Source of the DNA: Anaeromyxobacteraceae bacterium
GTDB taxonomy: Bacteria > Myxococcota > Myxococcia > Myxococcales > Anaeromyxobacteraceae
Assembly (NCBI GenBank): GCA_047602405.1
Contig: JASGHJ010000002.1
Coordinates: 128,001-192,000 of the forward strand
Reading direction: 5' to 3'
DNA length: 64,000 nt
Of the stretch, positions 48,095-53,120 are shown piece by piece (position 1 is the stretch's first letter; each line of letters starts with the position of its first letter). The translations under genes were made by a program, and so were the position numbers. Below the pieces are notes generated by a model, which saw nothing but the letters and a program-made list of their open reading frames with translations, was not told the origin of the DNA and did not search any database.

Positions 48095-48466
48095 ATGGCC
48101 GCCTCGACGAAGGACCTCCTGCTGAAGCTGTTCGCCGGAGGGGACGCGAGGCCGGTCCGCACGTCGCAGACGCTCTTCCGCGAGGGCGAGCAGGGCAACT
48201 CGGCCTTCGTGGTGCTCGAGGGCGAGCTCGAGATCACGATCCGCGGCATCACCATGGAGCGCGTCGGCCCGGGCGGCATCGTCGGCGAGATGGCGTTCGT
48301 GGACGACTCGCCGCGCGCGGCGAGCGTGTCGGCGCTCGTCGACTCGAAGGTGGTCGAGGTGCCGGCCGCGCGCTTCGACGAGATTGTGCGGAGGGACCCC
48401 GCGTTCGCGCGCGTGCTGCTCTCGATCGTCTCCGAGCGGCTCCGGAAGATGAACCGGTACCTGTAG
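48095..48466 (+). CDS. Stand-alone cyclic-nucleotide-binding domain protein
   Basis: LFREGEQG..AFVVLEG, GEMAFVD..PRAASV; RBS GGAGG. Confidence 0.88.
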   Translation: MAASTKDLLLKLFAGGDARPVRTSQTLFREGEQGNSAFVVLEGELEITIRGITMERVGPGGIVGEMAFVDDSPRAASVSALVDSKVVEVPAARFDEIVRRDPAFARVLLSIVSERLRKMNRYL

Positions 48467-48492: not shown

Positions 48493-48529
48493 TTGACGCC
48501 GACAGGCCTGTGCTGAAAAATCAGCACAG
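48493..48529 (+). promoter_or_regulatory. Promoter (-35 TTGACG) and palindromic operator CTGTGCTGA-AAAA-TCAGCACAG directly before the blaI-like ATG
   Basis: Perfect 9-4-9 inverted repeat 48508-48529; 17-bp core recurs at 50934-50950. Confidence 0.85.
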
Positions 48530-48919
48530 ATGCCACGCAAGGTCGCCGAGTCCCTCAGCCGCCGCGAGCGGCAGGTCATGAACGTCCTCTTCCGCCGCGG
48601 CGAGGCCACGGTCGCCGAGGTGCTCGGCGACCTCGCGGACCCGCCCACCTACTCCGCCGTGCGCTCGGTGCTGCGCATCCTCGCGGAGAAGGGGCTCGTC
48701 ACGCACCGGGAGGACGGGCCTCGGTACGTGTACCTGCCCGCGGTCGAGACGGGCCGGGCCGGGACGGAGGCGCTGCAGCACGTGGTGAAGACGTTCTTCG
48801 AGGGCTCCGCCGAGCAGGCGGTGACGGCGCTCCTCGAGCTGAGCGACGCCGGCCTCACCGACGCGGAGCTCGAACGGCTGCGCGAGCGCATCCGCGCCGC
48901 GAAGAAGGCGGGGAGGTGA
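48530..48919 (+). CDS. BlaI/MecI/CopY family repressor
   Basis: LSRRERQVM.VL...GEATV.EV...PTYSAVR..LRIL.EKG, TFFEGS. Confidence 0.93.
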   Translation: MPRKVAESLSRRERQVMNVLFRRGEATVAEVLGDLADPPTYSAVRSVLRILAEKGLVTHREDGPRYVYLPAVETGRAGTEALQHVVKTFFEGSAEQAVTALLELSDAGLTDAELERLRERIRAAKKAGR

Positions 48920-48923
48920 CGTG

Positions 48924-50887
48924 ATGGCCCTCGAGCTCGCGCTCCTCGTGGCGAAGGCGACCGCGCTCCTCGGCGCGGGCGCGCTCGTGGCCCTCGCGCT
49001 CCGCGGCGCCTCCGCGGGCGCCCGGCACCTCGCGTGGGCGCTGACGCTCGGCGCCGCGCTGGTGCTCCCGGCGGCCGCCCGCCTGAGCCCGTGGCGGCTC
49101 GAGGTGCTGCCGGCGCCGGCGGCCGTCGAGGCACCGCCGGCCGCGCTCGCCCCCGCCGACGGGGTCCCGGAGCCGTCCGCCGCGCCGGTCCGCCCCCTCC
49201 CATCCCGCGCGCACGGCCAGGTCACGCCGGCGCGCGCCGTACCGTCGCCGTCGCCGTCTCGGGCGGAGGCGATCACGTTCGCGCCCGATCCGGCGGCGCT
49301 CGCCGTGATCCTCTGGGCCGCGGGCGCCGTCCTGCTCGCGCTCCGCGCCCTCGACGGCCAGCGCGCCGCCCGGCGGCTCGTGCGCGCCGCCCGGCCCTGC
49401 GCGGACCCCCGGCGGCTCGACCTCCTCATCGATTCCTCTCCGACCGGCTCGGCCTCGAGGAGCCGCCCCGCCTGCTCGTGAGCGACGCCGTGGCGATGCC
49501 GTTCGCGTACGGGCTCCTCCGCCCCGTGCTGGTCCTGCCCGCGCAGGCGGCGCGGTGGGACGACGCCCGGCTCGCCGTGGTGCTCCTGCACGAGCTCGCG
49601 CACGTGCGGCGGCGCGATCCCGCCGTGCACGCGCTCGCCGGCCTCGCGCGGGCGGCGTGGTGGTTCCACCCGCTCGCGTGGTGGGGTGCGGCGCGCCTGC
49701 GGGCGGAGGCCGAGCGCGCGGCCGACGATCACGTGCTGGCGTGCGGCGCCCGGCCCAGCGACTACGCGACCCACCTCGTCGAGATCCTCGCCGCGGCGCG
49801 GAGGCCCGGGGTGCCCGCGGCCGCGCTCGCGATGGCGCGCGTGCGCGAGCTCGAGGGCCGCCTCGTCGCGCTGCTCGATCCCGCCGTCCGCCGGGGCGCG
49901 CCGGGCCTCGCCGCCCGGGCCGGGCTCTCGCTCGTGCTGGCGGCGGCGCTCGTCACGGTGTCCGCGGCGGCGACGACCGCACCGGCGCCGGCCGCCGCGC
50001 CTCCGAAGGCCTCCCCGGCGGAGGCCTCGGCGCCGGCGACCGCGGCGGCACCCGCGGAGCCCGCGCGCCCGGTCACCGCGCCCCGCCGCACGGTGAGCGC
50101 GGCGCAGCCCGCGAAGGCGGCGGCGCCGGCCCTCGCCGCGCCCGTGACCGCGCCGGCCGCTCCCGGAGCGGGCGCCCGCACGGCGCTGCTCTCGAAGGTG
50201 CTGGCCACCAATCCCGACGCGGAGGTCCGCAGGGCTGCGGCCTGGGCGCTCGCGCAGGACCGCGGCGCCGCCTCCGCGGCGGAGCCGCTCGTGGGCGCGG
50301 TTCGCGGAGACGCCGACCCCGAGGTGCGCGAGATGGCCGCCTGGGCGCTCGCCGACGCACCCGGCGCCTCCATCGGCGCCGCCCTGGCCGCGGCGCTCCG
50401 CTCCGACCGGGAGGCCGAGGTGCGGCGGACCGCCGCCTGGGCGCTCGGTCACCGCGAGGACGGCGACGCCGCCGCGCTCGCCGCCGCCGCGAAGGACCGG
50501 GACGCCGAGGTCCGCGAGGTGGCGCTCTGGGCGCTCGGCCAGCGGCGGGCCGCGGAGGCCCAGGCCGCGGCGGCGGGCGCGCTCCGGGATCCCGAGCGCG
50601 ACGTGCGGCTGGCGGCGGCGTGGGTGCTCGGCGAGCTGCCGGACGCCTCGGCCGCGAAGGCCCTCGAGGCCGCCTTCCAGTCCGAGCAGGACGGCGAGGT
50701 GCGCGAGGCGCAGCTCCGGGCGCTCGCCTTCCTGGGCGACGCCGAGGGCGCGTGGCTCGAGAAGGCGCTCACCTCGCGCGACGCGGAGCTCCGCGCCCGC
50801 GTGGTGGCCATGCTCGCGGGGAAGGGGCCGGGCCCGTGGCCGTGGCCGTGGCCGTGGCCATGGCCGGATCCGAGGCCGATGCCCTGA
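48924..50887 (+). CDS. M56 (BlaR1-type) metallopeptidase with C-terminal HEAT repeats and (PW)n tail; frameshift ~49432
   Basis: TM N-terminus; PFAYGLLRPVLVLP, HELAHVRRRD, WWFHPL, ERAADD; about 7 EVR..AAWALG-type repeats. Confidence 0.88.
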
Positions 50888-50933
50888 GGGGGAGCGGGGG
50901 AGCACGGGGGGCAAGGAACTTGCGCGTGGAGAG

Positions 50934-50950
50934 GTGCTGAAAAATCAGCA
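50934..50950. promoter_or_regulatory. Second copy of the BlaI-like operator GTGCTGAAAAATCAGCA
   Basis: 17/17 identical to 48510-48526; upstream of the HEAT-repeat gene. Confidence 0.85.
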
Positions 50951-50961
50951 GCGGCGCGGGA

Positions 50962-51007
50962 CCTTCCCCGACCCGAAGCGGCGGGGGAGAGGGCCAGGGT
51001 GAGGGGG
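50962..51007 (+). repeat. REP-like element (GGGGAGAGGGCCAGGGTGAGGGG type)
   Basis: Resembles the widespread CCCCTCACCC..CCCTCTCCCC intergenic repeats; single copy here. Confidence 0.5.
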
Positions 51008-51010
51008 CGC

Positions 51011-51112
51011 CGGAGCGGGAGCGGGAGCGGGAGCGGGAACGGGAACGGAAGCGGGAACGGGAGCGGGAACGGGAGCGGGAACGGGAGCGGGAGCGGGATC
51101 AGAAGCAGAAGC
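51011..51112 (+). repeat. Hexanucleotide tandem array, mostly GGGA(G/A)C, 17 units
   Basis: 15 GGGARC-like units plus 2 AGAAGC, ending at the RBS AGGAGGG. Confidence 0.95.
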
Positions 51113-51123
51113 AGGAGGGAACA

Positions 51124-52438
51124 ATGGCCATGTGTTCGGCGATCTTGTCGGCGATGCTGGGGTTCACCACGGCGGTGGCGGCGCCGCAGGGAGGGGATTC
51201 GAGGGACCTGCTCAGCGCGGCGCGGGGGGCGGCGCCGGCGCTGTGCGCGCTCGCGATCGACGGCGTGGGGAGAGGCGGCGGGCACGGGTTCGATGCGCCG
51301 TCGCTGCCCGTGACGACCGCGGTGCGCGAGCGGCTCCGCGGGAGGGGGGCGGCGCCTTCGGCCGAGGAGGCGAAGGCCCTCGTCGGCGCGCTCGGCGCGG
51401 GGGACCCGTGCGAGCGCCACATGGCGGCGACGCTGCTCGGGCGGAGCGGCTCGGCGCCGCTCGCGGCGGAGGTCGCCGGGCGGCTCGGCGCGGCGGCCGC
51501 GCCGGAGCGCGCGGCGGTGCTCCTCGCGCTCGGGACGATGGAGGCCTCGGCCCAGGCGGCGCCGGTGGCGAGGGCGCTCGGCGACGGCGTCAGGGAGGTC
51601 CGCGCCAACGCGGCCTGGGCGCTCGGGCGCATGGAGGCGAAGGGGCAGGTGCCGGCGCTGCAGGCGGCGCTGAAGGACCGGGAGCCGATGGTGCGCGCGG
51701 CGAGCGCGACCGCCCTCGGGCGGATGGAGGCGAAGGCGGCGGTGGAGGCGCTCGGCAAGGTGCTCCGCGCGGACGAGGACGCCGAGGTCCGCCGCACCGC
51801 CGCCTGGGCGCTCGGCGAGCTCGAGGACCGCGCGGGCGCCGGCGCGCTCGCGGCGGCGCTCGCCGGTGACAAGGCGGTGCCGGTGCGCGAGATGGCCGCG
51901 TGGGCGCTCGGGAACCTCGAGGCGAAGGACCAGGTGGAGGCGCTCTCCCGCGCGCTCTCCGACGACGCGATCGAGGTGCGCGAGACGGCGGCCTGGGCGC
52001 TCGGCGAGCTCGAGGCGCGCGGCGCGGAGCCGGCGCTCGCGAAGGCGCTCGCGGACAAGGCGCCGGAGGTCCGCGAGACCGCGGCCTGGGCGCTCGGGCA
52101 GCTCGAGCTCCGGACGGCGCCGCCGGGGCTGGTCGCCGCGCTCAAGGATCCCGAGGCGGACGTCCGCCTCGCCGCGGCCTGGGCGCTCTCGGAGAATCGC
52201 GGACCGCGGGGTGGCCGCCGCGATCGCGGGCGCGCTCCAGGCCGAGAAGGACGACAAGGTGCGCAAGGCCGAGATCCGCGCGCTCGTCGAGCTCGACGAG
52301 CCGCCCGCGGAGGTGCTGAAGGGGCTGCTCGAGGCGAAGGACCCCGAGACGCGCGCGCTCGCGGTGCGTGCGCTCGCGGGCCGGGGGCACCCGTGGCCGT
52401 GGCCCTGGCCGCGCCCGCAGCCCCGGCCGTCGCCTTGA
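51124..52438 (+). CDS. Exported HEAT-repeat protein with (PW)n tail; frameshift ~52195
   Basis: Signal-like N-terminus; about 11 HEAT repeats; removing one A from GAATC restores LSEIADRG and joins the frame ending PWPWPWPRPQPRPSP. Confidence 0.85.
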
Positions 52439-52490: not shown

Positions 52491-53120
52491 ATGCGCCCAG
52501 CCATCCTCGCCGTCGTCGCCTCCGCCGCGCTCGCCTGCGGCACGTCCACTCCGCCCCCGGCGCCGTCGCCCGCCCCGGTGCCGGCCCAGCCCGCGGCGCA
52601 GCCCGCCCCCGCGCCGGTCGCGGCGCCCGCGCCCGCTCCCGCACCGGAGCCCGCGCCCACGCCGGCCCCGAAGCTGGAGGAGAAGGTCGTGGCGCAGGCT
52701 CCGGCCCCCGCGCCGAAGCCGGAGGTGAAGCCCGAGCCGAAGCCGGCGGCGCCCGCGCCCGCTCCGGCCCCCGCGCCGAAGCCGGAGGTGAAGCCCGAGC
52801 CGAAGCCTGCGGCGCCCACCCCCGCTCCCGCCCCCGCCGAGCCCGCGTCCACGCACGCCAAGGTCGGCGCCGCGAAGTGCAAGATGTGCCACAAGGTCCA
52901 GTACGCCTCGTGGGAGGCCTCGAAGCACCCGGCCGCGAACGTCGACTGCGAGGCCTGCCACGGCAACGGCGGCGAGTACTGGATGGCGTCCGTGATGAGG
53001 GATCGCGCGAAGGCGACGGCGGCCGGGCTCGTGATGCCCACGGTCGCGAGCTGCAAGAAGTGCCACCCGGGCGCGGACGCCGCGCTCCTCGGGAAGGCCC
53101 ACGCGCACAAGGGCGGGTAG
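52491..53120 (+). CDS. Triheme cytochrome c lipoprotein with Pro-rich linker
   Basis: Lipobox ALAC; CKMCH, CEACH, CKKCH; duplicated APAPAPKPEVKPEPKPAAP. Confidence 0.88.
   Translation: MRPAILAVVASAALACGTSTPPPAPSPAPVPAQPAAQPAPAPVAAPAPAPAPEPAPTPAPKLEEKVVAQAPAPAPKPEVKPEPKPAAPAPAPAPAPKPEVKPEPKPAAPTPAPAPAEPASTHAKVGAAKCKMCHKVQYASWEASKHPAANVDCEACHGNGGEYWMASVMRDRAKATAAGLVMPTVASCKKCHPGADAALLGKAHAHKGG

Follow-up and report, generated by a model that had tools for sequence, protein, structure and literature searches.

Many BlaR1-like proteases beyond Staphylococcus and Bacillus have no known signal, and the locus analyzed here raises the question of what such a sensor detects when its outer domain is made of HEAT repeats and its putative output is a HEAT paralogue. 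The locus lies in the window, a 64,000-nucleotide stretch of an Anaeromyxobacteraceae genome (contig JASGHJ010000002.1, positions 128,001 to 192,000). It comprises three codirectional genes, encoding a BlaI repressor, an M56 protease-HEAT sensor, and a HEAT paralogue with a predicted signal peptide, and is adjoined by intact dnaE and topA genes. Judging from sequence, these genes appear to form a BlaI/BlaR1-type system with a HEAT sensor and a HEAT output. A literature search found no paper on a system of BlaI, M56-HEAT, and a HEAT paralogue; most subscription papers and all supplements fell outside that search, so a mention in a comparative table is possible. The features of the locus are as follows.

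48493..48498, + strand: −35 box (TTGACG) of the blaI promoter
48511..48526, no strand: operator 1, TGCTGA-AAAA-TCAGCA, over the predicted −10 box (48516-48521)
48530..48919, + strand: blaI-family repressor gene, 129 aa, PF03965 above cutoff
48924..50887, + strand: sensor gene for an M56 protease joined to HEAT-like repeats (BlaR1-type membrane part, then a Pro/Ala linker, 7 repeats, and the tail); the assembly has a frameshift near 49430
49589..49603, + strand: HELAH zinc motif; an EXXXD motif (EAERAADD) lies downstream
50171..50833, + strand: sensor ectodomain with 7 HEAT repeats of the alphaRep type, five of which, in a row, have Trp at repeat position 26
50834..50884, + strand: C-terminal (Pro-X)n tail of the sensor, PWPWPWPWPWPDPRPMP
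50935..50950, no strand: operator 2, same sequence as operator 1, between the sensor and output genes
51001..51098, no strand: simple GGGAGC/GGGAAC tandem repeat, in the gap separating operator 2 from the output gene
51124..52438, + strand: output HEAT gene (predicted signal peptide, a cap with Cys41 and Cys96, 11 repeats, and a tail); the assembly has a frameshift at 52195
52391..52435, + strand: C-terminal (Pro-X)n tail of the output, PWPWPWPRPQPRPSP

A BlaI repressor, an M56-HEAT sensor, and a putatively exported HEAT paralogue

The repressor matches PF03965 (E value, 8.7e-25; 87.7 bits versus a curated cutoff of 22.6) and, at an E value of 7.8e-05, the Bacillus licheniformis repressor 1p6r; it is 60 to 68% identical to its Gemmatimonadota partners, and its message is predicted to be nearly leaderless. 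The protease domain of the sensor matches PF05569 (E value, 4.3e-25; 88.9 bits versus a cutoff of 31), and the H, E, and H of the zinc motif, together with the later E and D, are invariant among 99 relatives. Four hydrophobic segments were found in the intact relative L027, and three exceeded the threshold in the two sensor pieces of the window. With sidedness taken from BlaR1, the C-terminal domain would lie outside the membrane. AlphaFold2 predicted this ectodomain as 14 helices, equivalent to 7 repeats, with pLDDT values of 83 to 98 across the repeats. These matches and this model agree with the original prediction, made from the sequence alone, of a blaI gene beside an M56 (HELAH) protease with about 7 HEAT repeats. 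The best fold matches of the ectodomain are alphaRep proteins (TM score, 0.76 to 0.81; in a second search, Z score of 24.5, rmsd of 2.9, and 211 aligned), and its two-helix solenoid of ~31-residue repeats in the VRxxAAxAL register is of the alphaRep HEAT-like type; the ESM Atlas returned nothing beyond automatic HEAT names.

The output had likewise been foreseen as an exported protein of about 11 HEAT repeats. Consistent with this, its counterpart in L027 has 11 repeats plus an N-terminal cap, and the predicted signal peptide is hydrophobic with an AxA site, lacking a basic residue in the window copy. The Cys pair is invariant in 121 rows. Among enzymatic HEAT-like families, the CpcE model (61 versus a cutoff of 330) and the NblB model (48.8 versus 300) scored far below their thresholds, and deoxyhypusine hydroxylase gave a weak sequence and fold match only. 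The colinearity first noticed in the last three repeats is real but extends further, as the complete set of 7 sensor repeats can be aligned to the final 7 of the output (44% over 227 aa, with the L027 output). Rather than the copy of the sensor's ectodomain that had been proposed, the output is a paralogue, with 44 to 46% identity, four additional repeats, and the Cys-pair cap. A sink or decoy role for it is plausible, while nothing specific favored the suggested role as an envelope chaperone. A free copy of the sensor domain is not a general rule for M56 systems: an ectodomain copy was nearby in 0 of 10 non-HEAT M56 loci, some of which had short flanks and one of which (L034) was not parsed.

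Two identical operators and a small putative regulon

As had been seen at the outset, an identical 17-mer with a palindromic core, GTGCTGAAAAATCAGCA, precedes both blaI (48510-48526) and the HEAT gene (50934-50950); the dyad within it spans 16 bp (6-4-6). A search of the whole genome (6,156,721 bases) for TGCTGA-N4-TCAGCA returned exactly these two copies. With an operator profile built from 79 sites in relatives, both window sites scored 31.4 bits and the next genome site scored 15.3, compared to maxima of 11.7 to 15.2 bits for column-shuffled profiles in this genome. The two copies therefore exceed what chance would give. A wider regulon in this genome was rejected, since a third site was never above the shuffled controls in the profile scan. 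No beta-lactamase or PBP gene lies at either operator in this genome; in 9 of 41 metagenome loci, the output is followed by a predicted PF00144 serine-hydrolase cluster. A palindrome count restricted to the window, with two mismatches allowed, fell short of significance when taken alone, as 29 of 100 shuffles reached 2.

The synteny of the three genes is conserved: the triplet occurs in 27 of 201 Gemmatimonadota genomes, versus 2 of 351 genomes of Myxococcota, the window's phylum. The operator lies upstream of blaI in 31 of 31 related loci and upstream of the output HEAT gene in all 30 testable loci, while a match was found in 40 of 2,322 control windows. Upstream of the blaI operator, TTGAC stands at a distance of 18 to 19 nt in 27 of the 31 loci and of 30 nt in the other 4; operator 2 of the window showed no conserved −35 box ahead of it. 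Metagenome loci collected independently had the operator after 21 of 21 sensor tails versus 3 of 94 output tails. Operator 2 is retained in G010, a second genome with these genes, despite diverged flanks; the tandem repeat downstream of it, absent from G010, is probably outside the mechanism. Comparative data give the regulon reading good support: both operator positions persist throughout a deep branch, one of them lies over the blaI −10 box, and this genome offers no third strong site. Acting at the two identical operators, BlaI likely represses its own gene along with the genes for the sensor and the HEAT paralogue. The operator is not an exclusive mark of the module, as TGCTR-type dyads precede blaI in loci with other ectodomains too.

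The module is rare in the window's genus (2 of 37). A combined BlaI and M56 tree, from which seven long-branch or near-duplicate loci were left out, placed the window pair as sister to all 27 Gemmatimonadota rows (85), overruling a hint in the BlaI tree (92/79) that the pair is nested within Gemmatimonadota. Since the combined tree puts the pair outside those rows, we claim no donor.

A shared proline-rich tail and a tryptophan ladder

Both HEAT proteins end in an almost invariant (Pro-X)n tail that includes a conserved Arg, and the window sensor has two PW units beyond the family consensus, PWPWPRPEPRPFP. The tails scored 0.94 and 0.93 for conservation, versus 0.90 for the catalytic core and 0.70 and 0.68 for the solenoids, although the tail values are inflated because tail-containing queries were used to collect the proteins. 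When DNA was searched with the tail alone, 122 of 123 ORFs were the HEAT C terminus of this sensor/output family. A representative-library search with a C-terminal profile retrieved mostly long generic HEAT proteins, along with at least 40 new matches bearing a Pro-rich tail, all of this type. In this genome, a search for tail-like candidate ligands gave, besides the two tails themselves, matches that on visual inspection did not seem to be credible coding frames.

At repeat position 26, Trp is present in 99 to 100% of rows in five sensor repeats (110 rows) and six output repeats, compared to 22% of position-26 sites in 20 non-M56 HEAT proteins; position 22 is often Glu. The concave binding face of alphaReps is made up of positions 18, 19, 22, 23, 26, and 30 (PMC3754942, in part). 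For the identity of the ligand, the tail and the Trp ladder offer the strongest leads. The original prediction mentioned neither of these and also omitted the frameshifts in the two HEAT genes.

Of 100 longer M56-HEAT sensors, 85 have a Trp ladder, and 46 of these carry a tail; none of the other 15 does. Ladders of 7 to 10 Trp pair with 8 to 11 Pro, and ladders of ~5 Trp pair with 7 Pro, a length match that amounts to one independent contrast on supported branches; the window sensor departs from it, with 5 Trp but a 10-Pro run. As 39 of the 85 Trp-ladder sensors and the output of the sister system in G943 have no tail, the tail is dispensable for some such systems. Sensors with Phe ladders exist too. 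AlphaFold2 placed both tails at low confidence (pLDDT, 55 to 57). A complex prediction of the tail-less output solenoid with the sensor tail peptide scored 0.02 versus a mark of 0.32, but the controls did not fold, so this score weighs neither for nor against docking. Fold searches returned no natural HEAT receptor with a bound tail.

A proposed mechanism and its alternatives

BlaR1 of Staphylococcus aureus cleaves itself and its cognate BlaI, and BlaR1 is switched by displacement of a tethered loop from the sensor site (PMC9834060, in part). The reading we prefer, which we rate somewhat short of an even chance, is that the groove binds a proline-rich peptide for which the tail is a tethered stand-in. 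At rest, the (Pro-X)n tail of the sensor would lie in its own Trp-lined HEAT groove, from which an incoming extended Pro-rich peptide would displace it. With the outer domain occupied, the M56 domain would cleave BlaI, a step assumed here from knowledge of the family. Loss of BlaI would induce the secreted paralogue, which has the same groove and tail and may capture the ligand, either neutralizing or carrying it, and thereby turn the signal down. If true, this model would extend the tethered-loop displacement switch of BlaR1 to noncovalent peptide sensing and would provide a natural modular binder for proline-rich peptides. A broader version, which we regard as doubtful, is that Trp-ladder HEAT grooves constitute a receptor class reading polyproline-type (Pro-X)n; a tethered mimic matched to groove length would hold the receptor off, and a secreted sponge would be induced against proline-rich antimicrobial peptides or for harvesting protease-resistant ones. 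Such a class would be large and undescribed, with the ligand pattern written in the receptor's own C terminus. Because the operator, target gene, binding face, and candidate ligand mimic are all readable from the sequence, a synthetic 13-residue peptide, combined with a reporter, could be used to test the signal.

The tail might instead dock between proteins, with the induced output binding the sensor, or re-attaching to the membrane domain once the ectodomain has been shed, to switch the signal off. CpxP is an induced periplasmic feedback protein that binds and inhibits its own sensor; by analogy, the system would respond when the output is lost or titrated away during envelope stress. The same tail is indeed kept on both proteins, 104 of 120 sensors have a signal-peptidase-like G-A-A-x-P after their last membrane helix, and signal peptidase sheds the BlaR1 sensor domain (PMC9834060, in part). 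Nonetheless, we consider docking rather unlikely, as the output of the sister system has no tail, the first outer loop of the sensor is poorly conserved apart from a short motif, and tail-less sensors still carry the Trp ladder, which points to an outside ligand.

It is unlikely, too, that the groove reads the surface of a folded protein, foreign or self (from a competitor, a phage, or a mis-sorted envelope protein), and that the tail serves folding, stability, or sorting rather than mimicking a ligand. AlphaRep scaffolds do bind folded proteins on the same face (PMC3754942, in part), and the low-confidence tails in both models and the existence of Phe-ladder and tail-less sensors are in keeping with this idea. 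However, in binders of folded targets the repeats differ from one another (PMC3754942, in part), whereas here a single residue recurs along the groove, an arrangement suited to a periodic ligand; moreover, the tail was not found on unrelated proteins.

Foraging differs from the preferred model in purpose alone: the system would sense proline-rich peptides or a periodic polymer and induce a carrier in the periplasm, joined in some lineages by a CBM9-DUF5916 importer of the outer membrane. A CBM9-DUF5916 gene follows the output in 16 to 17 of 30 Gemmatimonadota genome loci, in which the regulon is not self-contained as originally proposed; at the window that description holds. Hydrolases or peptidases lie downstream at several other loci. 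Against this purpose, which we hold to be quite improbable, DUF5916 follows the output in 1 of 41 metagenome loci and was rejected as a core member, no such gene adjoins the window locus, its two homologues elsewhere in the genome have no operator, and the peptidase neighbors belong to differing families, with no control set. Our literature search found nothing on DUF5916.

Frameshifts in the two HEAT genes

Each HEAT gene carries one frameshift, near 49430 in the sensor and at 52195 in the output. G010 is in frame at the sensor site, and the extra base at 52195 is absent from G010 and from contigs of a close relative in three runs. Over 333 kb aligned with G010, this assembly shows at least 30 coding shifts, 20 of which read GAATC or GATTC (background, 0.44%); both locus frameshifts are among these cases, and G010 reads GATC there. 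The sequence comparison thus suggests that both are probably long-read sequencing errors at GATC. That the copy in this genome is a decaying acquired cassette with two true pseudogenes, a reading that concerns this copy alone, is very unlikely. In its favor, both HEAT genes are frameshifted, G010 has frameshifts of its own at other places, the module is rare in the genus, and dnaE and topA beside it are intact, but the GATC-associated shifts, the contigs lacking the extra base, and an M56 core 98% identical to that of G010 argue against decay.

Comparison with known systems

Like BlaI/BlaR1 and MecI/MecR1 of S. aureus and B. licheniformis, the module pairs a PF03965-family repressor with a sensor whose C-terminal domain is predicted to lie outside, and it shares with BlaR1/MecR1 the HEXXH...EXXXD M56 domain and four membrane segments. 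A dyad operator over the promoter and a possible signal-peptidase site before the sensor are further common features, and an output related to the sensor domain recalls the resemblance of BlaR1's sensor to class D beta-lactamases (PMC9834060, in part). In contrast to BlaR1/MecR1, the sensing part here is built as a HEAT solenoid that bears a Trp ladder and ends in a Pro-rich tail, with neither a penicillin-binding domain nor a class D beta-lactamase-like one of the kind that beta-lactams acylate; NCBIfam blaR1_generic gave 50.6 bits versus a cutoff of 400, with the match confined to the protease part. Also unlike BlaI/BlaR1, the output has no recognized enzyme domain, the genes are codirectional, and the operator is TGCTGA-N4-TCAGCA.

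M56/BlaI pairs outside the control of beta-lactam resistance are exemplified by PvmSR of Pseudomonas aeruginosa and mycobacterial BlaIR (bioRxiv 10.64898/2026.08.03.742534, in part) and by BlaI_0696 and BlaI_1845 of Clostridium thermocellum (PMC8457756, in part). In the available text of both sources, these atypical systems likewise have small autoregulated regulons and inverted-repeat operators, and no HEAT sensor, paralogous output, or tail is described for them. PvmS and mycobacterial BlaR have no sensor domain at all (bioRxiv 10.64898/2026.08.03.742534, in part), and the C. thermocellum motifs, GTCTAT/GACTAT (PMC8457756, in part), are unlike the operator here. The ectodomain shares its fold and register with alphaRep/HEAT-like (PBS lyase) repeats (PDB 4xl5, 6gwc, and 7p0h), at 30 to 37% identity. 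AlphaReps are artificial binders with varied binding faces (PMC3754942, in part), whereas the proteins described here are natural, have a predicted periplasmic location, and combine an unvarying Trp ladder with a tail of their own.

Organization of the module and quality of its sequence

The original prediction described a blaI gene, an M56 protease gene with a HEAT ectodomain and a gene for an exported HEAT protein in succession, and the coordinates bear this placement out:

48530-48919, blaI (PF03965)
48924-50887, M56 protease sensor gene (HELAH and EXXXD motifs, then HEAT repeats)
51124-52438, output HEAT protein gene with a predicted signal peptide

The G+C content of 74% and the gene set would fit an Anaeromyxobacter-like myxobacterium. 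The repeat numbers proposed, about 7 and 11, agree with structural models, which gave 7 repeats for the sensor ectodomain of the window; an intact Gemmatimonadota output was modelled with a cap and 11 repeats. Colinearity between the two proteins, first noted for the last three repeats, proved wider: the sensor's seven repeats can all be aligned to the last seven of the output.

Each HEAT gene carries one frame change, near 49430 in the sensor and at 52195 in the output. G010, the only other module carrier in the genus, keeps its frame at both positions, but has its own shifts elsewhere. Over 332,740 aligned bases, comparison of this genome (G000) with G010 gave 122 one- or two-base indels, comprising 30 coding-frame shifts in this assembly, 4 in G010, 78 unclear or intergenic and 10 other. 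GAATC or GATTC occurred at 20 of the 30 shifts, compared to 0.44% of random 15-mers. The two shifts of the locus likewise read GAATC/GATTC where G010 has GATC. Moreover, the extra base at 52195 was absent from a close relative's contigs in three runs. Nanopore errors at methylated GATC are on record, while most methylated motifs give none, according to the available part of PMC12392509. Both frameshifts are very probably sequencing errors, and it is highly unlikely that the HEAT genes of this copy are true pseudogenes. Across the 333 kb aligned to G010, the G000 assembly shows at least one coding frameshift every 11 kb. Two thirds read GAATC/GATTC, and several of the remainder fall at words like GAAGA/TCTTC; apparent gene disruptions elsewhere in this genome warrant caution.

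The operator

The identical 17-mer reported before blaI and before the output gene lies at 48510-48526 and 50934-50950, and the suggested genome scan for TGCTGA-N4-TCAGCA returned these dyads as the only two in the whole genome. A profile scan of this genome found no third site above shuffled profiles. The predicted −10 box that copy 1 overlaps lies 17 nt downstream of TTGACG. In a set of 31 loci (the window, G010, and 29 Gemmatimonadota), the operator preceded blaI in all 31, with TTGAC 18 to 19 nt upstream of it in 27 loci and 30 nt upstream in 4. Copy 2 lay between sensor and output in 30/30 testable loci (25 by script, 5 by eye; one locus ended with its contig), compared to 40/2322 control windows. 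Among the matches listed for metagenome loci identified solely through the tail, an operator followed 21/21 sensors and 3/94 outputs. As the carrier genomes are related, these counts are not independent of one another. Many relatives have a G+C hairpin together with a pyrimidine run upstream of copy 2. This layout would suit a terminator coupled to an internal promoter, and equally a roadblock formed by the repressor; in the window, copy 2 lacks both a strong hairpin and a good −35 box.

Dyads of similar type also lie 5′ of blaI where the M56 protein carries a TPR, TonB, or other ectodomain; the motif thus characterizes a BlaI subfamily. Three Myxococcota-labelled loci (L026, L028, and L029) encode M56 sensors with TPR-like ectodomains and have TGCTAG-type tandem dyads. 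The remaining blaI of this genome goes with a dyad of another type, TACA..TGTA, which would agree with an absence of cross-talk; this second BlaI/M56 pair (G000:C2:488948-490576) has two such dyads, and its ectodomain is partly helical and not of the HEAT type. Altogether, we regard a three-gene regulon under BlaI as highly probable.

Distribution and neighboring genes

The module was found in 2/37 genomes of the genus and 2/351 of the phylum. Among 201 Gemmatimonadota genomes, 31 matched; 29 of these had two matches, which were neighbors on a single contig in 27. In a tree, HEAT-type modules formed one clade (99), with the window pair sister to the Gemmatimonadota rows (85). Because the range is patchy, horizontal transfer is likely; the tree does not identify the donor.

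The module core is three genes. Among the matches listed for 41 metagenome loci, the neighbors seen most often were a family without a name (12 loci), PF00144 serine hydrolases (9), and TPR proteins (6); the first (L142:556-1080 and 11 similar loci) has no Pfam match and is the commonest post-output gene. In L058 (genome G111), a small TPR gene separates sensor and output, and tandem operators still lie directly 5′ of the output. The 16 kb analyzed at L061 (G229) contain an output with tail and two operator-like sites but neither blaI nor a sensor. In the window, a lone cNMP-binding-domain gene (48095-48466) lies just 5′ of blaI; it matches only the same 2/37 genus genomes (E 1e-15) and was not seen adjoining the module in Gemmatimonadota loci. 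Here and in G010, the output is followed by a c-type cytochrome (52491-53120) with a lipoprotein-like start and a long Pro-alternating linker that contains a 63-nt duplication.

The tail and the Trp groove

Sensor and output both end in a Gly-rich linker and a tail in which every other residue is Pro. The strict pattern occurred in 115/120 sensors and 115/120 outputs, the misses being variants or truncated. Tail conservation equals that of the catalytic core, in proteins gathered with queries that included the tail, a choice that inflates the figure. A tail-only DNA search fell on the HEAT C terminus of the module family in 122/123 ORFs among the matches listed; the remaining ORF was cut by a contig start. 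AlphaFold2 modelled both tails with low confidence (pLDDT 55-57).

The sensor ectodomain is alphaRep-like, and the alphaRep concave binding face comprises positions 18, 19, 22, 23, 26, and 30 (PMC3754942, in part). In five repeats of the sensor and six of the output, 99-100% of rows have Trp at position 26, and Glu is frequent at position 22. Aromatic ladders can bind polyproline helices, and Glu can pair with Arg. Presumably, the tail resembles proline-rich antimicrobial peptides; the accessible portion of a review (PMC9629497) describes no such system.

Among 100 longer M56-HEAT sensors, 85 had a Trp ladder (46 with the tail, 39 without), 10 a Phe ladder, and 5 few Trp; the tail occurred in 0/15 of the last two groups. 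Twenty non-M56 HEAT proteins had no tail and 22% Trp. Tail length rose with ladder length (rho 0.67, 59 rows), with only one supported independent contrast, and tail presence needs three changes on the tree. The larger family (P0241-P0360) includes long Trp-ladder sensors, a Phe-ladder clade, and tail-less clades, with named members in Longimicrobiales and Vicinamibacterales. P0331 (1244 aa) fuses sensor, tail, signal-like stretch, and output into one reading frame and may be a read-through or assembly artefact. One of 351 Acidobacteriota genomes (G943, L226:5062-9035) contains a sister system. It comprises BlaI, a sensor with about 8 to 9 Trp repeats that ends in a 10-Pro tail, and a short tail-less output sharing the Cys cap; tandem TGCTAG-type dyads lie 5′ of its blaI.

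Proposed mechanism

BlaR1 of S. aureus has its sensor site occupied by a tethered outer loop until the drug displaces this loop; the protease itself cuts BlaI, and the sensor can be released by signal peptidase (PMC9834060, in part). A G-A-A-x-P site lies just after the last membrane helix in 104/120 module sensors. The module may follow the same logic, but with a noncovalent ligand: a Pro-rich peptide would push the tail out of the Trp groove, BlaI would then be cut, and the output would be made and bind the ligand. The existence of tail-less Trp-ladder sensors implies an outside ligand and a tail that is an optional threshold device. We propose this whole sequence, from tail displacement to ligand capture, tentatively, as plausible though short of probable. 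Docking of the output on the sensor is unlikely, and a folded protein as groove ligand we rate lower still. Less likely than either is a role in foraging together with the CBM9-DUF5916 gene, which lies 3′ of the output in 16/30 Gemmatimonadota loci with downstream DNA (17 counting a partial one) and in only 1/41 metagenome loci among the matches listed.

Comparison with known systems

Automatic annotations already name the M56/HEAT fusion; we found no paper on the module in open full texts. The module shares its predicted mode of working and the families PF03965 and M56 with BlaI/BlaR1, whereas its sensor did not score as a beta-lactam sensor. The atypical BlaIR pairs in the accessible part of bioRxiv 10.64898/2026.08.03.742534 have no sensor domain, and those in the available text of PMC8457756 have operators that differ from the module's.
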